Position numbers and translations under genes: made by a program
Shown here: one piece after another, positions 1 through 26,081 of the stretch
Numbering within the stretch: position 1 is the stretch's first letter
Layout: each line of letters opens with the position of its first letter
Notes under the pieces: model-generated
The model's database searches: none
Seen by the model: the letters and a program-made list of their open reading frames with translations, nothing else
Told to the model about the DNA's origin: nothing
Source: Escherichia phage vB_EcoS_W011D
Reading direction: 5' to 3' (one strand)
Sequence record: NC_054893.1
DNA length: 49,847 nucleotides

Positions 1-81
1 CGACGGGAATATGAATCCACGCTCTCACCTTCCTGTTTCATAGCGCCGTCAAGCGTCATAAGGTGCAACGTATAGAGCGCA
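1..81. repeat. Terminal duplication: 1-81 is identical to 49767-49847 (closure overlap of a circular or circularly permuted genome)
   Basis: Direct comparison of the first and last 81 nt of the window; the unique sequence is 1-49766. Confidence 0.9.
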
Positions 82-290
82 ACTGCTTTGGGGTATGAGT
101 CTTTAAAGCGCTTCACGCAAACAAACTCTTTAGCCAGTTCAACCCATGCCGTTAATAAGTCTGGATCGATTTGCTTCATTGGTGGCGCTATCTTTTGGAT
201 CTGCTCCGCAATTTCAATATCGGTGTATAATTCATCGACCATTTTCACTTCCTCCAGATATGACAAAGGGCGCTAATAGCGCCCCAGGGT

Positions 291-563
291 TTAAAACTCG
301 CCGCCGTCCTCTAATTCTTTTCGGCTCTTGCCCTCTTTGGGGTCTTTCTTGCGCTGCTTCTCTACGCGATCTTTGATTTCATTGGTTGCAGTGGAATCGT
401 CTTTGATTACCAGGTCGCCGCGATGAATCAGAGATTCAATGCCTTTATTGGCAAGTTCTTTTTCTGCAATTTCCATTTCGTCACCTGGCAGATAGCGATC
501 ACCTTTGAAGTGAATAGAGCAAACGCCAACATTGGAAAGCACAACAATTTTTTCTTTAGCCAT
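291..563 (-). CDS. Hypothetical protein, 90 aa, immediately downstream of the major capsid gene
   Basis: Track ORF; position in the head module; followed by a perfect hairpin GGGCGCTA/TAGCGCCC at about 268-284. Confidence 0.45.
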   Translation of the reverse strand: MAKEKIVVLSNVGVCSIHFKGDRYLPGDEMEIAEKELANKGIESLIHRGDLVIKDDSTATNEIKDRVEKQRKKDPKEGKSRKELEDGGEF

Positions 564-614
564 TTTTTAATCTCCATAAGTAAAAGGGGAACCCCGAAGG
601 ATTCCCCAATATTA

Positions 615-1586
615 TTACACGCCAGTGATTAACACAATAGTTAATGGGCGATAAATTGTCAGGCCAGTGCATTTAGAGGTGCAAGGCACTTTGAAATGCA
701 GGTCTTTAGGCTGCGCCGGAAGCATGTTAAACGCTTCTGGAATTTCAATAGACATATTCATCGGGTCTTTTTCATAGACCAGTACGCCCTTGTTGCCGTT
801 ACCGTCGTAATCTTCCAGTTCCGCGATTGCTTCAATGGTAATGCCGCCGTTCTGCTTCATGAAATAATCAAGATAGCTTTCGGTGGTTTCCGGCATACGA
901 ACCATAAGAACTTTACGGACGGATGGAGGGATCAGAATGTGAGTTGCTCGGTGCTGCCCGTCAGTTTGGGTTTCCAGCACTTCCAGCGCATCAGTCAGAT
1001 CGTTATAAGCCTGTTCCGCGCGTTTGGTTTTGGTTCCTGCGTCATACCATTTTTCCGCCGCAACAACTTTAGTGATGTTCGGATGTTCGAACACGCTAAT
1101 GATTTTATGAGGCTTGGAGCCTTTAAACACCAGGTGATTGACGAGGTGATCGTGTGCGCTCTGTGCCGCATTCGCTTTACGGTTGCTCAGGCTCTTACCA
1201 GTGCGTTGACCTGCTTTGATCTCGTCAATGGAAATCAGGAACGCGTTACCCAGGCGGAACACTTTACCAAACTCAGTAGACATAAGCGCGTCAACAGTTG
1301 GCAGGTCGTCGGTATAATCAGCGATGATTTTCGCGTAACCAACTTTATCAAAAGTCTGATACTCAAACGTTTTGTCGGTGTCGCTCAGTTCATTGGTAAC
1401 AGGGAACACGCGAAGCGCGGAGCCTACTGGATACTCTTTATTGTAAGCGGTAGAGCGGATCTTGTGTAGCTCTTGCGCCGTCCAAATACCCATATCGGAC
1501 GCATCTGATTTTACGCCTCGCGCTTGAAGATGCGCGGAAACAACGGAAGCGTCGAATTCATCATATTTCTTAGTTTTGCCAGTCAT
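615..1586 (-). CDS. Major capsid protein (presumed HK97-fold)
   Basis: 323-aa ORF with AAGGAGA RBS, placed after the scaffold/decoration genes and before head-tail joining genes; size and position typical of siphovirus major capsid proteins. Confidence 0.7.
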   Translation of the reverse strand: MTGKTKKYDEFDASVVSAHLQARGVKSDASDMGIWTAQELHKIRSTAYNKEYPVGSALRVFPVTNELSDTDKTFEYQTFDKVGYAKIIADYTDDLPTVDALMSTEFGKVFRLGNAFLISIDEIKAGQRTGKSLSNRKANAAQSAHDHLVNHLVFKGSKPHKIISVFEHPNITKVVAAEKWYDAGTKTKRAEQAYNDLTDALEVLETQTDGQHRATHILIPPSVRKVLMVRMPETTESYLDYFMKQNGGITIEAIAELEDYDGNGNKGVLVYEKDPMNMSIEIPEAFNMLPAQPKDLHFKVPCTSKCTGLTIYRPLTIVLITGV

Positions 1587-1630
1587 TGCTAATTCTCCTT
1601 AAAAGGGCTGTTTTAATTGACAGCCCAATG

Positions 1631-1650
1631 ATAGCATTTTTTGTTAAACG
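1631..1650 (+). promoter_or_regulatory. Conserved 20-bp box copy (ATAGCATTTTTTGTTAAACG), plus orientation inside the leftward structural block
   Basis: Matches the genome-wide box; followed 18 nt later by TAGAGC; sits between a decoration-like gene and the major capsid gene next to hairpin 1605-1626. Confidence 0.5.
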
Positions 1651-1662
1651 TGCAACAGATTT

Positions 1663-2472
1663 TTATGGTAGAGCCGGATTTACAAAATCAAGAATGTATG
1701 TATCTGAAACGCCAGAACCATCGTTAGCGTCCCAATTTATAAACACGGTTCCCTCTGCTGTTCCTGTTGGGGTTACAAGTCCATTCTGATCTACATCAGC
1801 AATATTGTGAACCTCGGATGTTCTTGCTTCATCTTCCCAGCATGACCATGTGCCAGTTCTATCCGTTGCATTATCCGGCTTAACGGTTACACGTAATTGA
1901 ATTGGTTTATTGTTAGGTTGCGGGGAATTCTCTGTAATATCAGACTCAATCAACGCCGCTTTAACTGGTACTGGTGGCGGTCCGATTGGTCGCAACTTAA
2001 CAACGGAAAGATTTACGCCAACAAGGTTAAATTGCTTGTCGTATTTCATAAAGTCGCCTGTAAAAGTCCAGCCGTCAACGATTTGACCATTGCCAGCATT
2101 AACAAAACCATCATCAGCAACATAAACAGCTTGACCGTAGTTAGGCGCTGAATCAATTTGCTCTGTCAAAGCCCAAACTCGACCGCGACGAACAACGTTA
2201 ATTGGATCTCCTGAACGGTAAACCATGTAGCCGCTCGACTCGTCAGAATATAAACAAGAGTGAGTGCGCAACGCGATCCCACAAGGCCGGATTTGCTGGC
2301 TGTACTTCGATGTGATCATGCGGTAGCCGTTAACGATTTCATCAACCATCACAACTTTACCAATCAGAATGGTTTCATCTTTGCAAACGCCAGTACCATC
2401 AATAATATAGCGACTTGAATCCAACATGCACCCTGGCTCAGTTGCACCCCACAAAACGCCATAATCAGACAT
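1663..2472 (-). CDS. Capsid decoration-like protein with C-terminal Ig-like (Big_2-type) segment
   Basis: 269-aa ORF with GGAGAT RBS; N-terminal half is paralogous to the 2535-3023 product (shared GRVW and TGDF motifs); position between scaffold and capsid genes. Confidence 0.5.
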   Translation of the reverse strand: MSDYGVLWGATEPGCMLDSSRYIIDGTGVCKDETILIGKVVMVDEIVNGYRMITSKYSQQIRPCGIALRTHSCLYSDESSGYMVYRSGDPINVVRRGRVWALTEQIDSAPNYGQAVYVADDGFVNAGNGQIVDGWTFTGDFMKYDKQFNLVGVNLSVVKLRPIGPPPVPVKAALIESDITENSPQPNNKPIQLRVTVKPDNATDRTGTWSCWEDEARTSEVHNIADVDQNGLVTPTGTAEGTVFINWDANDGSGVSDTYILDFVNPALP

Positions 2473-2534
2473 AATTTTATCTCCTATGAAAATAAAAAAG
2501 GCACTCTAAAAAGAGTGCCTATTATATCGCGAGA

Positions 2535-3023
2535 TTATGCGCCGAACAACTTCACCTCAATGAGATTGAGATCCTGGAATTTGGTAAAGTCACCAGTTGC
2601 GATCCAATCCGTTTCGATATCTCCGCCAGCGGTATCAGCAAAACCAGTTGCGGATTCAATTTTAACAGGGGTATCGTACTGCGGCGCTACTGCGTCTTTT
2701 GAAATCATCCAAACGCGCCCCTCGGTAATTACGTTGATGCCGCCGCCGTCCTCGTAAACCATTCGGCCATTTTCGCCAGTAGTCTGGAAGTGTGAGCGAA
2801 TCGCAACCCCGTAAGCGTGATCGCCAGCGCTGGTGATCGGCTTGATGATTTTGTTACCCATTGCATCAACGCCGCCATGCTTAACAGCAACGCCAACAAA
2901 AATAGACTTGCCGCCCTCGGTATTCAGAACACAAGCGCCGTCGATGTTATATGCGGAAGTGTCAGCAACTTGACCAGGTAAAGCGCGTGCCATGTTCTTT
3001 TGATAATATGCCGGAATAGCCAT
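2535..3023 (-). CDS. Capsid decoration-like protein (paralogue of 1663-2472)
   Basis: 162-aa ORF with AAGGAGA RBS; shares MVYxxG..INV..GRVW and TGDF segments with the neighbouring gene. Confidence 0.5.
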   Translation of the reverse strand: MAIPAYYQKNMARALPGQVADTSAYNIDGACVLNTEGGKSIFVGVAVKHGGVDAMGNKIIKPITSAGDHAYGVAIRSHFQTTGENGRMVYEDGGGINVITEGRVWMISKDAVAPQYDTPVKIESATGFADTAGGDIETDWIATGDFTKFQDLNLIEVKLFGA

Positions 3024-3035
3024 CTTTATTTCTCC

Positions 3036-4148
3036 TTACTTGTTAAGTTTAGCCAGGCGCGCATTCGGATCTAAAACCGTTTCGCCGTCCTGTTTTTCTT
3101 GTGCCGCATCGCCTTTGGTTGCGATACGTTGAGCCGCCATTTTATCAGAATCTTTAGCCAGATCAAAGGCAACATCAATGTAAGCGTCTGCTTTCATGGA
3201 AATGTCAGCGCCTGTAACCTCTTTGACGTAAGCAACTTTGATTGCTTTTGCGTCCAGGCCATCAGTTTTCACGCCTACTTCCTCGGCAACTTTTACAAGC
3301 TCTGCATGTGCTTCCGCGTCTGCTTTAGCCTGTGCAACGGCTTTTTCGATCTCAGCCGGAATGCCGTCAACTTTGGTTTTCAGTGCATCGCGCTCTGCTT
3401 CCAGGCCATCGGCTTTTACTTTTGCCGCTTCTGCGTCTGCTTTCACGTTTTCAATGAAGGTTGCAACTTCTTTTGGCACATCGAATTCAACAGCGCCGTC
3501 CAGTTTAATTTTTACAGTCATTACATGATCCTCTTTGTTTGAAATTTCGGTGTTATCATACGGGAATTCTTGCTCGCTATCAAGATTCAATTTTGCGATA
3601 CCCGCGCGACCTTTAAACACCATAGCGATATGGTTTACGCTGATATTGGTTTGCACCGCATCAAATCTAACCCAATCCGCGCTGTCTGCTTTCCATCCTT
3701 CCGGCATATCTTCATCAAAGAAATATTCACCAGTTGCGTTGTTGCCCCAGCCTGGTTTGTCAATATCAACGGAAGTGTAACCGACTGACAATTCGGCGGT
3801 TTGCTTTTTCTTCGCGCTCTGAATGGCTCGCTTGTCGTAAATGCTTAACGGAACCTCTACGCCAACCCCATTTGGCACGCCAGCACCAGCGCACGCGCCC
3901 ACAACAACATCCTTTGCATTCTCCGGCGTTACTGTGACGTGTCCGATTGTGATCGGCTTGCCGGAAAACGTTTCCAGTGAATCAGCCTTGAAAACCTCGG
4001 ACGCGGGGCGGAATTCTCGCCGCTCTCCGAAAGGTGTTTTGTAAATCTGCAACCCGATACGGGCAACAATCGGACGGTCTACCAGAAAACCATGTTCATC
4101 AATCTTTGCTTTTACCTGTACGCTATCAAAGCGTTGCACTTTTTTCAT
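3036..4148 (-). CDS. Scaffolding protein candidate with Ala/Lys/Glu-rich coiled-coil C-terminus
   Basis: Track ORF 3036-4205; start moved to internal Met (MKKVQRF) preceded by AAAGGAGAAA RBS; lies between head morphogenesis and decoration/capsid genes. Confidence 0.5.
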   Translation of the reverse strand: MKKVQRFDSVQVKAKIDEHGFLVDRPIVARIGLQIYKTPFGERREFRPASEVFKADSLETFSGKPITIGHVTVTPENAKDVVVGACAGAGVPNGVGVEVPLSIYDKRAIQSAKKKQTAELSVGYTSVDIDKPGWGNNATGEYFFDEDMPEGWKADSADWVRFDAVQTNISVNHIAMVFKGRAGIAKLNLDSEQEFPYDNTEISNKEDHVMTVKIKLDGAVEFDVPKEVATFIENVKADAEAAKVKADGLEAERDALKTKVDGIPAEIEKAVAQAKADAEAHAELVKVAEEVGVKTDGLDAKAIKVAYVKEVTGADISMKADAYIDVAFDLAKDSDKMAAQRIATKGDAAQEKQDGETVLDPNARLAKLNK

Positions 4149-4161
4149 CTTGATTTCTCCT

Positions 4162-4911
4162 TTACCATTTAGGGATCGCCCAACAGCGGCAACCGTACTC
4201 CTCACCTGGGAACGGGTGAATGTCGTTTAAATCGATCTCTTTTCCTTCCCATCGTAAGTGTTTTAGTCGCTCGCGCTCGTCAAGCATACCATGCCAGAAA
4301 TAAGAATTCACCCCTGCATCATAAAGGCGTTGCCGCATCAGGCGACTATTCCACGATCCAATAATTCCGGTTGCGCGGTTGCCAGCCCAGGAAGAATAAA
4401 CAGCAAAACGTTTCTCCGCTATATCATCAACCTGATCGGCATTCTTTCCGGTGAAATTTGCTTGCCGAATGTTTGCCGCCCAATCCTGAATGATGTTTGT
4501 GAATAGCTTGTCGAATGAATCTGCACTCATTGTGTGCCATTCGCCGTATAACTTTTGATACCAGCTTTCTCCCTGATTGGCTCCGATTGCGATCAACAAT
4601 ATTACGGATGGATTAGCCGAGCCGCCTGTTGATTTTGCTACGTTAACAAACTGCTTTGAGTTGAATTTATAAACAGACTCCGCCAGCGACGGAAGCAAAC
4701 CAATCAGCGACAACGCCAGATTTTTTGCAAGCTCTCTGATTTCATCCTCAGCCGTGGTGATTTCCTGATCCGTTGCGTCAAACTTCATAGCTCGCGTCTT
4801 GCTACGCATAAACACAACCAGATCGCGCACCGCTCGTTTAATTGAGCGGGATAAATCCCGCTCGCTTGCTTCTGGAAATCGCCATTGCTTAACAATGCCG
4901 TTTACCTTCAT
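4162..4911 (-). CDS. Head morphogenesis protein (SPP1 gp7 / Mu F-like minor head protein)
   Basis: 249-aa ORF directly downstream of portal with ATGA start/stop overlap; GGAGAA RBS. Confidence 0.55.
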   Translation of the reverse strand: MKVNGIVKQWRFPEASERDLSRSIKRAVRDLVVFMRSKTRAMKFDATDQEITTAEDEIRELAKNLALSLIGLLPSLAESVYKFNSKQFVNVAKSTGGSANPSVILLIAIGANQGESWYQKLYGEWHTMSADSFDKLFTNIIQDWAANIRQANFTGKNADQVDDIAEKRFAVYSSWAGNRATGIIGSWNSRLMRQRLYDAGVNSYFWHGMLDERERLKHLRWEGKEIDLNDIHPFPGEEYGCRCWAIPKW

Positions 4912-6185
4912 TGATTATTCTCCGTTCCTGGCTCCGGCTCCGTTTCCGGTTTCGGTAGCTTGATGTTATCAGTGTCTTTGATTTTGATAATCGAACCCAT
5001 AGATCGCAATGTGTCGCGCGCTTCCTCGGTGTCGATTAGCTGATCCTGCACCAGCTTAGTGACTGAATCAACGTTTTTGTTTAAAACTTCCGCCTGATCT
5101 TTATCGCTCGGAACCGAAAGCGGCTCAAACACAATAGACCATTCTGATTCATTCACCAGGAAAGGGAGGATGAATTCTAAAACTGGCTTGTATTCCTCGC
5201 CACGCTTGCGATCAATCAGCTTGTGATAAGTCTCAAGTGCGGTGTTTTGGCTTGCGCTTACGCCGCCAGTGTTCTTGTTTTTAAGCACGATCTCATGAAT
5301 GCCAGTTAGGGCAACAATGCGATCAAACTTGCTTTGCAGGAATTCAGGCACGCCGGAAACGTCAGAATTCAACACCGCGTATTCTTCATCTTCCGCATCA
5401 ATACCAATTGCCTTACCCACTCCGCTTTCGTCGTCAACCTGTGCCAAACGCAAACGCGCCGCCGCAACCCCTTCGTCGTCGTCGCATAAATCCGCAAGGC
5501 CTCGCGCTTTCCATACTGCTTGTTGCTTGCGCCGCAAAAGCTGGCTTGCTAACTCCTCGCAGTAGTTATAATCGCGAATCGCTTCAATCAGCCGCTTGTT
5601 GAGGATTGAGCCGCCCCAGCCATCATTATTCTTGCGCTGCTCGTTTGGGAGTCGCTCGCCGTCAATGATGCAAATGCGCGTGTAATGAACATCATATTCT
5701 GGAATGTCATTCCCAGGCGTAATTGTGTACAAAACAGGCTCGCCATAACGAACGCTCCGCGCGTTTGTTTCTCGCTTGCTAACTCTGATTTGGTATCGAT
5801 CATAAACGCGAATATCTTCTAACACCGCACCTTCTCTTACTGGCGATTTCAACATGCGCCCATCTTGCACGATTGCAACAATCCCAGAACCGCCAAACAA
5901 GCGCGACCAGCAAAGCGCATCAATGATTTTTGCGTTGAGTCGCTTTTCATCCCATAGCGATCTGAATGCTGCCTCGTCTGCGATACCCTCAACCTTAAAC
6001 CCTGGCGTAACCATATCCTCTGGAATTACGTCGATGATTTTTTTTGCTAACCCGTCTTGCTCATAGAATGATGCAAGTGATGTTTTAGCAAGACCTTGCA
6101 TATAGAACGGCTGTTCAACTCGCTTTTCACCTTTGAAAATTTCGTTGTAGCCATCGGCCTTAACGATCTTATTTTTATCAGTCAT
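4908..6185 (-). CDS. Portal protein
   Basis: 425-aa ORF immediately after large terminase; acidic C-terminus; GGAGAT RBS. Confidence 0.75.
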   Translation of the reverse strand: MTDKNKIVKADGYNEIFKGEKRVEQPFYMQGLAKTSLASFYEQDGLAKKIIDVIPEDMVTPGFKVEGIADEAAFRSLWDEKRLNAKIIDALCWSRLFGGSGIVAIVQDGRMLKSPVREGAVLEDIRVYDRYQIRVSKRETNARSVRYGEPVLYTITPGNDIPEYDVHYTRICIIDGERLPNEQRKNNDGWGGSILNKRLIEAIRDYNYCEELASQLLRRKQQAVWKARGLADLCDDDEGVAAARLRLAQVDDESGVGKAIGIDAEDEEYAVLNSDVSGVPEFLQSKFDRIVALTGIHEIVLKNKNTGGVSASQNTALETYHKLIDRKRGEEYKPVLEFILPFLVNESEWSIVFEPLSVPSDKDQAEVLNKNVDSVTKLVQDQLIDTEEARDTLRSMGSIIKIKDTDNIKLPKPETEPEPGTENNQ

Positions 6186-6202
6186 GTCCTGATCTCCATA
6201 AT

Positions 6203-6227
6203 AAAAAAGGGCTGGAAAGTCCAGCCC
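6203..6227 (-). terminator. Hairpin GGGCTGGA/TCCAGCCC with T-run on the minus strand, between terL and portal (likely attenuator)
   Basis: Perfect 8-bp stem followed by TTTTTTATT on the transcribed strand. Confidence 0.5.
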
Positions 6228-6240
6228 TGATTATATCAGC

Positions 6241-6260
6241 TTTTTAGCAATTAGTGCTAT
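6241..6260 (-). promoter_or_regulatory. Conserved 20-bp box copy (ATAGCACTAATTGCTAAAAA, minus orientation)
   Basis: Box overlaps the terL TAG stop; TATAAT lies only about 4 nt downstream, then the attenuator hairpin. Confidence 0.5.
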
Positions 6261-7825
6261 TTCTTCAAACCTGCCAGCTTTTTCATGCGTGCAACTGGAT
6301 CGTCTGCAAGGTTCATTTCGACGTTAACCGCATCAACGATGTTATCAACTATGTCGTCGTGAGGGTGTGAATCGTCGAATGTGAACGCCGCCACCTCTGC
6401 AAGCAATTCCGCTAACATCGGGTGATTCTCCGGTAACGCAACGCGCCCCGCTCGCATTACTGGCGCTGCATCCATAGCGCGCGTTACTTTGTCCGTGTTA
6501 CGCTGAACGGGATTTATATCAATAGGCAATTTCTTTTTAGCGCCCTGAATCAAACCCGTACCGCTAGCCTTATCCTCAACGTGGATTCTGCGCAATGTTC
6601 CACATTCTTTGTTGCGTTTCCAGCACTGATTAACGAAAGCAACAAAGTTTGTGTCAAGATCCGGCGCTTCCCATTTGCCGCGCACGCCGTCGATAAAGTA
6701 AACACGGTTTTTGTACATTCCCCAATAACAAAACACGGTGTAGTCGTTTAACTCTCCTACTTTCTGCGCCGTATCCGCTGTGATGAATGTATATTCAAAG
6801 CGATCTGGTTTTGGTAGTGTGCATTTCTCGCCGCCGCCGTAATACTGGAACCATTCCACCTTGAACACGTTACCACCCAGCGCGATTGGCTGTTGTTGGT
6901 ACTGTGAAAGGAATGTGTATGGATCAGCAAGCCATAACTCACGCAGTGATTTTGCGCTTTCCTTTGCAGGCCAAAAAGAAAAATACTCTACGCCATCAAC
7001 AACAACAGGCTCGCTTGTCAGAACATCGCGATCAAATTCAGGCTTTAACCAGTCAGGAAGCGTTTCGCGGTATTCGCGAGTAACCAGCGCCGGAATGCTT
7101 ACAACCTCAAACTCAATACCACCCATCCCGCCATTTAACAGGAACCAGGTAGAATCATTGACGTGCAACCGCTGCTGAACAACAACACAAGGAGTGGTGT
7201 CTTTCATGCGACGTGATCGGACGGTGTTTTTTAGGCGCGTGTGAATCGACGCTCGTCGCACTGCGGAAAACATATCATCAGGCTTGTCGGGGTCGTCAAG
7301 CGTCAACATTCCCGTAAAACCATCATCCATGTAACCGCCACGCAAACCTGTTACCTGTCCACCAATGGCGCGGGAGTTTAGTTGCAACCAAACTTTGCCA
7401 TCACGATTTAACGCCGTGATATCCTTTGCGCTTGCCTTTGACAGCTTGCAAGGCCAAAGCTCTTGGAATTCTGGCGATCCGATAATCTCTTTCACGCGCA
7501 TTGAGTTTTGTTGCACCAGCCCATCACTAAATGAAAGGTTTAGGTTGCGCACTTTCTTTCGGCGCTGCATACAATGCACTGGCATGTGAATAGAAAAAAT
7601 TTCCGTCTTGCCGGAACCAGGCGTGATATTAAAGATCACGTTTTGCGCTTCACCTGCAATGATTTGCTCAACCTTCCAGCACAAATAGCTAAAATGCCAG
7701 TTACCCAAAAACTTTTGCCCCTGGAGGAGTTGAAACCAAATGCGGATCATTTTTTCAAATGAGATCTCGCTCATTTCTTTAATGGCGCGTTTCTGCGCCG
7801 CTGTCAAATCTTCCCAAATCAACAT
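6257..7825 (-). CDS. Terminase large subunit
   Basis: 522-aa ORF with Walker A-like PGSGKT near the N-terminus and acidic nuclease-type C-terminal half; follows terS by 2 nt. Confidence 0.85.
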   Translation of the reverse strand: MLIWEDLTAAQKRAIKEMSEISFEKMIRIWFQLLQGQKFLGNWHFSYLCWKVEQIIAGEAQNVIFNITPGSGKTEIFSIHMPVHCMQRRKKVRNLNLSFSDGLVQQNSMRVKEIIGSPEFQELWPCKLSKASAKDITALNRDGKVWLQLNSRAIGGQVTGLRGGYMDDGFTGMLTLDDPDKPDDMFSAVRRASIHTRLKNTVRSRRMKDTTPCVVVQQRLHVNDSTWFLLNGGMGGIEFEVVSIPALVTREYRETLPDWLKPEFDRDVLTSEPVVVDGVEYFSFWPAKESAKSLRELWLADPYTFLSQYQQQPIALGGNVFKVEWFQYYGGGEKCTLPKPDRFEYTFITADTAQKVGELNDYTVFCYWGMYKNRVYFIDGVRGKWEAPDLDTNFVAFVNQCWKRNKECGTLRRIHVEDKASGTGLIQGAKKKLPIDINPVQRNTDKVTRAMDAAPVMRAGRVALPENHPMLAELLAEVAAFTFDDSHPHDDIVDNIVDAVNVEMNLADDPVARMKKLAGLKK

Positions 7826-7827
7826 GA

Positions 7828-8343
7828 TTAGATTTCCTCTAAGATATCGCGCACCGCCTCTTTTACTTCATCAGCCGTTACAGTTTCAACGCTGGCGTTT
7901 GCTTCAACGTTAATGCTTGCTGGCTTATCAACGCCGATATCTTTTGCGATGAATGCAGCGTTAACAAGGTTGTTTGCGGCAAGCTGGAATTTCTGCTCGT
8001 TGATTACGGTGTCGATGAAATCCATCACCTCACTGAATCCAGGCTCTTTGCGCCACTTGAGAGTTACAGACTCTGAAAACCCGCAAAACAGCCGCAAGCC
8101 GTTAAGGGTAAAGATTCGCGGTTTATGGATCTTGGATTCGAACACATCACCCTGAAAGGATGCAGTTTCCGCCGCCTCAATGTGATTCTTTTCCGCCCAT
8201 TCGAAATAGCGGATCGCCAGATCAAAAACCTGCTCCGGCGTTATGGTGTGCGCGTTATTCAGTCGCGCAATGTCGCCATATCGTTTGTTGTATAGTTCTT
8301 TGAAGTTAAGCGCCTTAACAACAGGCTCAATGTTTTTAGCCAT
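7828..8343 (-). CDS. Terminase small subunit
   Basis: Track ORF 7828-8400 trimmed to MAKNIEP start preceded by AAAGGAGGG RBS; immediately upstream of terL. Confidence 0.55.
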   Translation of the reverse strand: MAKNIEPVVKALNFKELYNKRYGDIARLNNAHTITPEQVFDLAIRYFEWAEKNHIEAAETASFQGDVFESKIHKPRIFTLNGLRLFCGFSESVTLKWRKEPGFSEVMDFIDTVINEQKFQLAANNLVNAAFIAKDIGVDKPASINVEANASVETVTADEVKEAVRDILEEI

Positions 8344-8383
8344 AATAATTGCCCTCCTTTGTTGGAGTCCGATTATAACAGGC

Positions 8384-23261: not shown

Positions 23262-23322
23262 ACCCGATCTTGTATCGGGTATATTTGTTTCATCGAAACG
23301 AAACACACAAAAGGAAATCACC

Positions 23323-23550
23323 ATGAGCACCAAATTTGTTGCAGTTCGCGTAAACCACTTTGCAAACGGTCAATCAATCGAGGTTCAAACCGTTTACAAC
23401 AAGGCTAATGGATGGAGCCATTACGACGCGCTGAAAGTTGAGCACGATATTGCAAAGCGTTTTGGCTGGGAGGTTTACGAAGTCTACATTAAACCATACG
23501 ACGAAAACGACAAGCCGACAAATGAATCTCATGAGTGGCAAGACGCATAA
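23323..23550 (+). CDS. Hypothetical protein, last gene of the rightward early block
   Basis: 75-aa track ORF with AAAAGGAAATCACC RBS; followed by a bidirectional terminator. Confidence 0.45.
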   Translation: MSTKFVAVRVNHFANGQSIEVQTVYNKANGWSHYDALKVEHDIAKRFGWEVYEVYIKPYDENDKPTNESHEWQDA

Positions 23551-23556
23551 AAAAAA

Positions 23557-23572
23557 GGAGCCGTTAGGCTCC
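23557..23572. terminator. Bidirectional rho-independent terminator GGAGCCGTTAGGCTCC
   Basis: Perfect 6-bp stem with A8 upstream and T-rich tract downstream; the stop codon and last codons of the u-spanin gene lie inside the hairpin. Confidence 0.7.
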
Positions 23573-23956
23573 TTTCTTGTTTCTACCGTAACCGATAGCA
23601 ACCAGCATGATAGCGATTGCAGCGAAAAACAAAACGCTCGTTTGCCAATCCAGGCCGCTATCTGAATTACGGATCTCTATCTTATCCGCCGTTATGGTTT
23701 CAGCCTGAATGCTTGAGGCGCTCACCTTCTTTTTGTTTGAGGTGTCAACCTTGCCAACGGCTGAATCCTTAATCGTGCTTTCCTGCTTGCTGCTGGTGTC
23801 CTGCTTTGCCGTTACGCCTACCGTTTGTTTTACGTTTTCTGCTCCGGCTTGTGCTGTGATTTCCGGCTTACTGCCAATCAAACCAGTCAGCGCGCTTGAT
23901 GCCGAACAACCGGAAAGCATTACCGAAACTGCAATTGCTGTGATTACTCGTTTCAT
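23564..23956 (-). CDS. Unimolecular spanin (T1 gp11-type): lipoprotein signal plus C-terminal transmembrane helix
   Basis: 130 aa; N-terminal signal with lipobox LSGC; C-terminal hydrophobic helix [16 protein letters not shown] followed by basic tail; directly downstream of endolysin with ATGA overlap. Confidence 0.65.
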
Positions 23957-24447
23957 TTTTTCAGATCCTTAACGCAATATTTGAACTCAACAGCGCGGCG
24001 GTTGTGTAAGCCTTTCGACTTCTCTTTTTTTCCGGTGCGCGGGTTTGTGTAATACGTCCAACTCCATAGCTGATCGCACGCCTCATACAATCGCCCCTGG
24101 TTAATCAGTTTCAGCATGGTTGACTTGCGAAACGCTCCGATTCCGGCGTTGTATGTGAATGAGTATAGAGCCGCTCGCATGGTGTCTGGAATATCCACCT
24201 TAACGCGCTTATCAACTTCATCCTTTGCGATCTTGATATGCTTTGCCAATAGCGCATCGCATTCGCGCTGCGTGTACGTCTTGCCTAAAACCACATCCTT
24301 TCCTGTGATGCCAGCGCATACCGTCCAGATTCCAGCAATATCCTTGTAAGGCTTATACCTGATTCCCTCGATCTCCTCCAGTAGTGGAGAAGTTAAGGCG
24401 AGCGCCACGCCAAAAGCACCCGCCGTGATTCTCGTCTTAATCGTCAT
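23953..24447 (-). CDS. Endolysin, T4-lysozyme-like (GH24) muramidase with hydrophobic N-terminal SAR-like segment
   Basis: Catalytic spacing E-8aa-D-5aa-T present ([16 protein letters not shown]); N-terminal [17 protein letters not shown] segment; between holin and spanin. Confidence 0.8.
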
Positions 24448-24662
24448 TATTTACCCCTGATTTTGATTGCCTCTTGAATGTCTCCGCGATCTAGTGCTTC
24501 CTGAAACGCCTTGCTATCTTTCCAGCGAAGATAAGCGCCCCATAAACCAAAAGCCGCCATCAACACCAGGCTTGCAACAGCAATTGTGATCTGCCCCGTT
24601 GCCGCGCTGGTTAATGATGATCCGCCAGTACCCATTGTTGCGGCGTTGATAAATTCTTTCAT
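24447..24662 (-). CDS. Holin (single transmembrane helix, charged C-terminus)
   Basis: 71 aa with one hydrophobic helix [21 protein letters not shown] and a Lys/Glu/Asp-rich tail; immediately upstream of endolysin. Confidence 0.6.
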
Positions 24663-24735
24663 GATTAGATCCTCAAAGTTAAATTGTCAATAAATATGTG
24701 AATATATACTAACCAGCCTTGAACGAAAACGGAAC

Positions 24736-24765
24736 AATAAAAAAGGGGCTGGCAAATGCCAACCC
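24736..24765 (-). terminator. Rho-independent terminator upstream of the lysis cassette (minus strand)
   Basis: GC-rich inverted repeat GGGGTTGGC/GCCAGCCCC (one mismatch) followed by TTTTTTATT on the minus strand. Confidence 0.55.
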
Positions 24766-24959
24766 CTATCAAGTTGATGATTTAATTATGTTTTATAGTG
24801 GCGAAAAAGTCAGATAATGCCCGTTTAATGGTGCCTGGATTGCGCTTCCTTGACCGTCGCGGATCTCGTATAAATCACCACAAAGTTTCACGGCACGATA
24901 AACAGCGCCAACGATAAACGGTAAAGATTTTGATGTGTTACGGATGCAACGAACTTTCA

Positions 24960-26081
24960 TTATTTGATCTCCATCATTTCAGGGTAGAACATGAAGCGAC
25001 CAATCTCGCCATATTCCTTATCGTAAACAATCACCGCCGCACGACGACGAGAGCGCCAACCACCGCGCGCCGCGTAAGCGTCTTTTGCTGCCATAGTGGA
25101 ATGTACTTCCACAATCCCCAGGCTCGTTTCTGTTACGGTCTGGTGATGCCAATGGCCTACATGCGCATACATGCTCTTTGAGTTTCCGAAATCCTCCCGC
25201 CAATCTGCCGCGCACATCATCAACAGCGTTTCAGGCTTGCGGATCGTATGTCCATGATGGTAAGCCAGGAACGTTTTACCATATTGCGTGTGATGCACAA
25301 CGCGCGGAGACACATCAACGTTTACGCGAGGCTCGTTTTCGTATGCCGCCGCCATTGCAGCACGTAGCCAGATCATTCCTGATTGGTCGTGATTACCTTC
25401 AATGATTTGCACCTCAACCTCTTTATGCTTTGTCAGCATGAGGCTAATTGCGCGGCGCGTGGCTCGGATTGCAACGTAAACTAATTTTGCGTAACGGCTA
25501 TCTTGATCCAGAACGTGACCGCTTGCAGGTGTTACAGCCTCCAGGCCGTCACTGTGAAGCATATCGCCACCAATCAGGAGCACCGCCTTTTCACTGTTTG
25601 GCGATTTACTAACTGCATAATCGAAAAAGTTATTCATAACCCTTTCCGCCGTTGCGGTGTCGTAGTTCTCGCCGCACTCATGCTTGTGAGCCATTGCCCC
25701 CAGGTGCATATCAAAGATCGGATATAAAGCCAGGCTTTCAGAATAATCAGCGCGTGATTCCGGCTGAGGCTCCAAGCGTGGCACTTCCTCTGCGAAAGCA
25801 TCCATAGCGGCTTGCATGAGAGCCTCTAATTGCTCTTTGTCTTTATTGGTGATAGTCCATCTCATGACTTCCTCACCATTTGCGCGAGTTAAAACAGACT
25901 CGCGCACAACTGCATAACCTGGAGCGCCTTTAATTTCAGTCTCACCAGAACGCGCAAGGCGTGACGCTCGACGCTCGACACTGCGAACATTAAGGCCGAA
26001 CTCCTCTGCGATCTGCTTGTAGGTTTTCCCCTCTTTGCGTGCTTTAATAAACTGCTCGTCGGTGATTTTTCGTACAGCCAT
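24960..26081 (-). CDS. Calcineurin-like metallophosphoesterase with N-terminal helix-turn-helix domain
   Basis: 373 aa; N-terminal HTH-like KTYKQIAEEFGLNVRSVERR; phosphoesterase motifs FDMH, GGDMLHSD and GNHD in order; AAGAGGAA RBS. Confidence 0.6.
   Translation of the reverse strand: MAVRKITDEQFIKARKEGKTYKQIAEEFGLNVRSVERRASRLARSGETEIKGAPGYAVVRESVLTRANGEEVMRWTITNKDKEQLEALMQAAMDAFAEEVPRLEPQPESRADYSESLALYPIFDMHLGAMAHKHECGENYDTATAERVMNNFFDYAVSKSPNSEKAVLLIGGDMLHSDGLEAVTPASGHVLDQDSRYAKLVYVAIRATRRAISLMLTKHKEVEVQIIEGNHDQSGMIWLRAAMAAAYENEPRVNVDVSPRVVHHTQYGKTFLAYHHGHTIRKPETLLMMCAADWREDFGNSKSMYAHVGHWHHQTVTETSLGIVEVHSTMAAKDAYAARGGWRSRRRAAVIVYDKEYGEIGRFMFYPEMMEIK

Follow-up and report, generated by a model that had tools for sequence, protein, structure and literature searches.

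The lysis genes of phage TLS, which encode Gp67–Gp69, have been described as a class II pinholin, an endolysin of the signal-anchor-release (SAR) kind and a T1-family unimolecular spanin (u-spanin) (PMC11447400), and the cassettes of T1, TLS and KanT1 have likewise been described as being of the pinholin plus SAR-endolysin type (PMC11447400, PMC13164509). The u-spanin of T1, gp11, complements λ RzRz1, and all but two members of the T1 gp11 u-spanin family are encoded in cassettes that combine a pinholin with a SAR endolysin (PMC6139136). Here we analysed a stretch of DNA of 49,847 nucleotides from Escherichia phage vB_EcoS_W011D (NC_054893.1; the whole stretch is referred to below as the window), the minus strand of which carries three consecutive, overlapping open reading frames (ORFs) at positions 23564–24662, an interval that begins with the first ORF's start codon and closes with the last ORF's stop codon. 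Our results indicate that this locus is very probably a late lysis cassette of the T1 type, belonging to a T1-like siphophage, in which each gene has its orthologue in T1 (genes 13, 12 and 11). A preliminary description of the same DNA had proposed a lysis cassette at these coordinates; they match the three ORFs exactly, and the PHROG and Pfam assignments given below are far beyond chance.

The 1,601-base lysis region is 98.8% identical in nucleotide sequence to Escherichia phage PaulSarasin (Bas09, MZ501099), a member of the genus Changchunvirus (Drexlerviridae, Tempevirinae), and identity to the PaulSarasin record is 98.0% for one half of the window and 96.9% for the other, identifying the window by its sequence as the genome of a T1-like siphophage that is essentially phage PaulSarasin. 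In that record the lysis genes, bas09_0044 to bas09_0046, are annotated as holin, endolysin and u-spanin; the first two products are 100% identical to those of the window and the third is 99% identical, with gene order, overlaps and flanking genes alike. The window locus is thus a close variant with essentially no difference, and the cassette is already known, being annotated in this 98.8%-identical GenBank record and described for the T1 family. A literature search on PaulSarasin/Bas09 returned nothing relevant. The T1 orthologues, gp13, gp12 and gp11, are 58%, 63% and 46% identical to the window proteins and are encoded in the same order, T1 belonging to the Tunavirinae whereas the PaulSarasin-like window belongs to the Tempevirinae. 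Homologues from Tlsvirus, which is in the same subfamily as the window, are 45%, 75% and 64% identical to the three window proteins. The three genes are as follows.

24447–24662, minus strand: holin gene, 71 residues, PHROG 2877, orthologue of T1 gp13
23953–24447, minus strand: endolysin gene, 164 residues, GH24 lysozyme and predicted R21-type (class II) SAR endolysin, orthologue of T1 gp12
23564–23956, minus strand: unimolecular spanin gene, 130 residues, PHROG 1804, orthologue of T1 gp11

The cassette therefore reads holin, endolysin, spanin, with the spanin as its last gene. The holin and endolysin ORFs share one base (TAATG) and the endolysin and spanin ORFs share four (ATGA), and a GA-rich Shine–Dalgarno-like element precedes each start codon: GAGGA for the holin, AGGGG for the endolysin and AAGGA for the spanin. 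Together, the overlaps and these elements form the arrangement expected of a translationally coupled operon.

The identity of the second gene product was clear from profile and structure searches. The endolysin matched the Pfam family Phage_lysozyme (PF00959, E = 2e-37) and PHROG 7 (E = 1.3e-54), and its closest solved structures were R21 of phage 21, the prototype of SAR endolysins (PDB 3HDE, E = 4e-44), and RrrD of DLP12 (4ZPU, E = 3.5e-43). It is 47.6% identical to RrrD over 164 columns, making R21 and RrrD true homologues that share both the catalytic triad and a cysteine-free SAR domain. The HMMER alignment to 3HDE spanned residue 5 of the query and residue 11 of the chain onward, so that the homology takes in the N-terminal SAR segment. 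Two features of the protein bear on its mechanism.

24322–24369, minus strand: catalytic motif E27-X8-D36-X5-T42, endolysin codons 27–42, placed by alignment to E35/D44/T50 of R21 and RrrD
24379–24447, minus strand: putative SAR domain, endolysin codons 1–23, consisting of MTIKTR and 17 uncharged residues

E27, D36 and T42 were invariant in 12 aligned sequences, including RrrD. The 17-residue uncharged segment is 53% Gly/Ala/Ser/Thr, has a mean Kyte–Doolittle hydropathy of 1.72 and ends three residues before the catalytic glutamate; it is preceded by the basic residues K4 and R6, and residues 1–43 contain no cysteine. Scored on the Hessa scale, the segment gives a sum of +2.6, compared with +0.15 for the SAR domain of RrrD, −1.05 for the transmembrane domain (TMD) of the holin and −1.7 for that of the spanin. 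The N-terminal segment is thus marginally hydrophobic, as SAR domains are, lying between real TMDs and soluble sequence. The same layout recurred in all ten T1-like homologues examined, each with one or two basic residues followed by 15–19 uncharged residues (37–56% Gly/Ala/Ser/Thr), free of cysteine and ending 0–3 residues before the glutamate. The lack of cysteine in the segment places the protein in the R21 class rather than in the disulfide-caged class of P1 Lyz.

A preprint from 2026 describes azide-sensitive, and hence Sec-dependent, lysis by the endolysin of a Veterinaerplatzvirus (Drexlerviridae) with the N terminus MKQKLLISAATAAAIYIAAP. This N terminus is nearly the same as that of the SU57 sequence in our alignment, and the SU57 protein is 45% identical to the window endolysin. 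A single-sequence AlphaFold2 model of the endolysin was poor (mean predicted local distance difference test (pLDDT) score of 58, with almost all of residues 1–54 below 50), and we drew no conclusion about SAR packing from it. By homology, the assignment of the window protein as an R21-type SAR endolysin is well supported, in keeping with earlier calls, made for this DNA, of a GH24 lysozyme with an E-8-D-5-T motif, of a hydrophobic, Gly/Ala-rich N terminus and of a possible SAR endolysin; the published descriptions of T1-family cassettes agree with the last of these. In work attributed to Sun et al. from 2009, the released SAR domain of R21 reportedly refolds into the body of the enzyme and repositions the catalytic glutamate.

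The third gene product matched PHROG 1804 ('Rz-like spanin') over its full length (E = 1.5e-47). For neither the holin nor the spanin did NCBIfam offer a model or Pfam a match above its cutoff. Two membrane-directing elements flank the periplasmic part of the spanin.

23906–23956, minus strand: spanin lipoprotein signal peptide and lipobox LSGC, codons 1–17, with Cys17 as the lipobox cysteine
23585–23647, minus strand: spanin C-terminal transmembrane helix, codons 104–124, called from hydropathy and followed by the basic tail RNKKGA

The residue at position +2 after Cys17 is serine, which fits sorting to the outer membrane. Between the lipobox and the C-terminal helix lie about 88 cysteine-free periplasmic residues, Cys17 being the only cysteine of the protein, and the hydrophobic helix itself comprises 19–21 residues with a Kyte–Doolittle value of 2.14 and a Hessa sum of −0.3 (19-mer) to −1.7 (17-mer). 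We aligned 11 homologues, covering six named genera of Drexlerviridae, two genus-less Drexlerviridae and one Drulisvirus podophage. G16 and C17 were invariant; a periplasmic core, KPxxTAQxGAENxKQ..G, was invariant or nearly so and aligned with T1 gp11; and a C-terminal hydrophobic segment with a basic tail was present in all 11, conserved in character and not in sequence. Pattern searching had also returned lipobox matches at Cys8 (IIAC and ILAC) in two of the homologues, which proved to be first-match artefacts, the aligned lipoboxes being VSGC and MTGC. The sole protein difference from PaulSarasin in the three lysis genes lies in the signal peptide of the spanin, where residue 13 (codon at 23918–23920) is Ser in the window and Ala in PaulSarasin.

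Membership of the T1 gp11 family has been defined by a clustering rule that asks for at least 40% identity across 40% or more of the length (Kongari et al. 2018, PMC6139136), with a periplasmic domain predicted to consist mainly of β-strands as a further family criterion and with u-spanins, unlike two-component spanins, being without periplasmic cysteines (PMC6139136). A full-length comparison of the window spanin with T1 gp11 gives 46% identity in a three-sequence alignment (43% in the 11-sequence alignment), and the window protein has the lipobox and its cysteine, the C-terminal TMD, no periplasmic cysteine and a place at the end of the cassette. Its lipobox is identical to that of T1 gp11, the wild-type LSGC of which has been tested by substitution (PMC6139136). 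Lipidation and a topology that takes in both membranes have been demonstrated for T1 gp11 itself (PMC6139136). Compared with T1 gp11, the sequence of the C-terminal TMD is not conserved and the signal peptide is five residues shorter. In work from 2018, internal in-frame starts of the T1 gene reportedly yielded a shorter, inhibitory product. Since these features cover every sequence criterion of PMC6139136, the 130-residue protein is, as judged by sequence, a true member of the T1 gp11 family and an orthologue of gp11, beyond mere likeness of architecture. On neither strand did the interval 23300–24900 contain another lipobox-bearing ORF of at least 20 residues, and an Rz1-type gene, whether embedded or overlapping, is thereby excluded. 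The preliminary description had read this gene as a spanin with an LSGC lipoprotein signal as well as a C-terminal transmembrane helix, of the T1 gp11 type and not of the two-gene Rz/Rz1 type, and on both counts it was right; DLP12, in contrast, has an embedded two-gene pair, rzpD/rzoD. A spanin of the same family, 38% identical to that of the window, was also seen in Autographiviridae podophages, in Klebsiella phage NNA-G4 (Drulisvirus; locus positions 2001–3232), where the gene order differs, running spanin, holin, endolysin.

The first gene product matched PHROG 2877 ('holin') over positions 1–71 of 71 (E = 1.3e-33). Residues 4–45 form a 42-residue uncharged stretch with no charged loop between its two parts, of which residues 4–23 are rich in Gly/Ala/Ser/Thr and weakly hydrophobic, and residues 25–45 form a strong helix (Kyte–Doolittle 2.07). 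In the family alignment the charged C-terminal third was highly conserved, and the TMD was equalled in conservation by the N-terminal segment, which bears TGG and TGQ motifs. The stop codon of the holin gene and the start codon of the gene for the R21-type endolysin overlap, pairing the holin genetically with a SAR endolysin. EssD, the S21-type pinholin that serves here as the reference for phage 21 and DLP12, is 71 residues long, as are the holins of the window and of T1, and has a similar hydropathy layout with no detectable homology. By sequence, the window holin is therefore best described as a member of the T1 gp13 family (PHROG 2877) and not of the S21 family. A dual-start (antiholin) motif was considered and rejected: the window holin has only Met1 and Met10, and Met10 occurs in one other aligned homologue and is not accompanied by a Shine–Dalgarno element. 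TLS-type holins differ in this respect, a dual-start motif, M1RDFLLM7, having been proposed for them.

How many times this holin crosses the membrane has been read in two ways, with a single TMD annotated in the T1 record (NC_005833) and two TMDs, as a class II pinholin, given in the TLS paper (PMC11447400). Of the earlier call of a 71-residue holin with one transmembrane helix, the length accordingly stands, and the single helix is one of the two published readings.

Several observations weigh against the reading of the locus as a cassette built from a SAR endolysin and a pinholin. With 17 uncharged residues to the 24 of RrrD, the SAR segment of the window endolysin is seven residues shorter; it is also the less hydrophobic of the two (Hessa sum +2.6 versus +0.15), and the six-residue TGPSGN linker of R21 and RrrD is absent, as it is from all ten T1-like homologues in the alignment. 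These differences mean that details of tethering and activation may differ from those of RrrD. Relaxed BLASTP searches found no similarity of the holin to the S21-type pinholin EssD (best E = 1.5) or to the SEN22 Salmonella class II holin (best E = 9.4), so that the term pinholin is drawn here from the partner enzyme and the hydropathy layout. A single-sequence AlphaFold2 model of the holin (pLDDT 74; predicted template modelling (pTM) score 0.37) showed one long helix at residues 17–58 with no hairpin, although its low confidence at residues 1–20 makes it weak evidence on one versus two TMDs. Finally, a promoter was not identified, a scan having returned 3 sites compared with 2.9 expected by chance from shuffled sequence. 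The best of these sites overlaps the holin ATG, and we assigned no promoter.

A freely secreted, active lysozyme would lyse cells prematurely, and this counts against the view that the endolysin N terminus is a cleavable Sec signal peptide that yields a soluble periplasmic enzyme regulated in some other way. In favour of that view, the N terminus combines an n-region (K4, R6) with a short h-region and with A15-L16-A17, an AXA-like sequence that can be read as a signal peptidase site, and the preprint reports that SignalP finds a signal peptide in a homologue. However, position 17 is not kept small among homologues (A/T/M/L/V/I), and the segment aligns with the SAR domain of R21, which is left uncleaved and forms part of the crystal structure of the full-length protein (3HDE); we consider cleavage very improbable. 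We would give just as little credence to a canonical, cytoplasmic endolysin whose N-terminal helix is part of the fold and is too short and too weakly hydrophobic for Sec. The 17 uncharged residues and a Hessa sum clearly less favourable than that of RrrD could be taken in this way, but the homology to R21 runs over the full length, the basic residues and the uncharged stretch are conserved throughout the family, and the 45%-identical family member lyses cells in an azide-sensitive manner. For the third gene, a weak match to PHROG 1119 ('Cor superinfection exclusion'; E = 4.6e-4), limited to residues 1–53 (signal peptide plus the beginning of the mature part), speaks for a reading in which the 130-residue protein is something else, for example a Cor-like exclusion lipoprotein, and an Rz/Rz1 pair is hidden in another frame. 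The match to the PHROG 1804 spanins covers the full length, the orthologue gp11 complements λ RzRz1, and the search of both strands for a second lipobox ORF effectively refutes the hidden pair, leaving this explanation almost certainly wrong.

The class of the holin is where the alternatives carry more weight. SAR endolysins, such as Lyz of phage P1, need membrane depolarization alone, and any holin provides it; the cassette could thus be as we describe it and its holin a canonical large-hole holin, or a holin of a distinct class, in place of a pinholin. The lack of similarity to EssD and to the SEN22 holin, the single TMD annotated in T1, the hairpin-free model and the ability of u-spanins to function with either type of holin–endolysin system (PMC6139136) are all compatible with this. 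Set against them are an S21-like layout, in which a weak, Gly/Ala/Ser/Thr-rich N-terminal segment precedes a strong TMD and a charged tail; an N-terminal segment as hydrophobic as TMD1 of EssD (Hessa sum of around 5–7 versus 6.5); conservation of the TGG/TGQ segment equal to that of the TMD; and the classification of the T1 holin as a pinholin by the Young laboratory survey (PMC6139136) and by the TLS (PMC11447400) and KanT1 (PMC13164509) papers. On balance a large-hole or distinct holin seems unlikely, and the partner enzyme, the layout, the TGG/TGQ motifs and the published classification lead us to favour, with some reserve, a pinholin. The earlier call of a pinholin-like holin thus agrees with the published classification and the layout, but not with the sequence comparison to EssD. 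In the literature on T1-type cassettes we met no channel-size data (~2 nm) for any T1-family holin. It is also conceivable, if quite doubtful, that the T1-family holin is a convergent and mechanistically distinct pinholin and, separately, that the product of the DUF7244 gene upstream of the cassette is a fourth lysis factor modulating the SAR endolysin. On the former proposal, the TGG...TGQ segment, running without a loop into the strong TMD, might act as a releasable regulatory element.

Three signals in the DNA frame the T1-type cassette.

24670–24674, minus strand: Shine–Dalgarno-like GAGGA, 7 nucleotides 5′ of the holin ATG, read from the sequence
23554–23575, both strands: bidirectional intrinsic terminator hairpin, GGAGCC-loop-GGCUCC, followed on the minus strand by U8
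24744–24767, minus strand: terminator-like hairpin and T-run 5′ of the holin gene, −19.8 kcal/mol, z −4.8

The hairpin at 23554–23575 folds with −17.1 kcal/mol (z −4.1) on the minus strand and −15.3 kcal/mol (z −3.6) on the plus strand, and the last three codons of the spanin gene and its UAA stop sit within the stem-loop. In T1 the annotated terminator likewise overlaps the end of gene 11. The window terminator is common to the spanin gene and to a convergent gene of 75 residues at 23323–23550 on the plus strand, and T1 is arranged in the same way.

Starting from the gene structure, orthology, motifs, hydropathy and family conservation described above, we propose how lysis would proceed; homology and the established models for phage 21 and T1 are our guide to export, tethering and lipidation, to the size of the pinholes and to the fusion of the membranes. 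The three overlapping genes would be co-expressed and translationally coupled on a transcript bounded by the two intrinsic terminators. The endolysin would be exported through Sec and held inactive at the membrane by its SAR segment while holin builds up in the inner membrane. The lesions that the holin would form at a programmed time, probably small pinholes, would collapse the proton motive force. Depolarization would free the SAR segment, allowing it to refold onto the lysozyme body as in R21, to render the E-D-T triad active, and the activated endolysin would then degrade the murein. The spanin, predicted to receive its lipid at Cys17 and to be sorted to the outer membrane with its C-terminal helix remaining in the inner membrane, would span the murein as a single chain by means of its periplasmic residues. 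Once the murein is gone, it would oligomerize, collapse and fuse the inner and outer membranes, releasing the virions, a fusion step that follows the model proposed for gp11 (PMC6139136).

Upstream of the cassette lie two further genes on the same strand.

24793–24960, minus strand: DUF7244 (SH3-clan) gene, 55 residues, PF23896 (E = 1.6e-28), 61% identical to T1 gp14
24960–26081, minus strand: ORF of 373 residues, annotated elsewhere as a phosphoesterase, a DNA repair exonuclease or a DNA polymerase II small subunit

A paper from 2026, which places the DUF7244 protein mainly in Tunavirinae, Braunvirinae and Rogunavirinae, proposes that it belongs to the lysis module of Drexlerviridae as an auxiliary, 'shell' component (PMC13164509). 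Here the gene is found in a Tempevirinae (Changchunvirus) genome. It stands upstream of the holin gene in T1 as in the window, T1 differing by an HNH endonuclease gene inserted between the exonuclease and DUF7244 genes, and it is missing from the Tlsvirus and Hanrivervirus loci that we compared. We found a DUF7244 homologue in 168 phage records versus 824 for the holin. In the window the DUF7244 start codon shares one base with the stop codon that ends the preceding 373-residue gene, and the hairpin at 24744–24767 stands between the DUF7244 gene and the lysis cassette. This overlap and the terminator before the holin gene point to co-expression with the upstream gene rather than with the cassette, and the DUF7244 gene may thus be part of the upstream transcription unit. 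The 373-residue ORF itself gave a weak N-terminal helix-turn-helix match resembling sigma-70 region 4 (residues 17–41, E = 1.3e-5), just under the Pfam cutoff.

The individual lysis genes are widespread, tblastn finding homologues of the lysozyme in 2,897 phage records, of the spanin in 1,128 and, over the full length, of the holin in the 824 noted above. Around 21 records named 'Campylobacter phage' (for example, MG065669 and MG065671) carry a T1-like cassette at 74–83% identity, an odd name for an enterobacterial phage family that may reflect host mis-assignment or contamination. In the comparison of whole genomes, window position 8344 aligned with the last base of the linear PaulSarasin record (segments 1–8343 and 8344–49847), showing that the window is circularly permuted with respect to that record, in line with expectation for a T1-like genome with terminal redundancy.

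Together, our results show, through the cassette confirmed here, that raw sequence alone can suffice to recognize a u-spanin together with a SAR endolysin. The questions to which the cassette leads belong to the T1 family as a whole rather than to this window, and concern the topology of the holin and the size of the hole it makes, membrane fusion by a β-rich, single-chain spanin and the role of DUF7244 in lysis.

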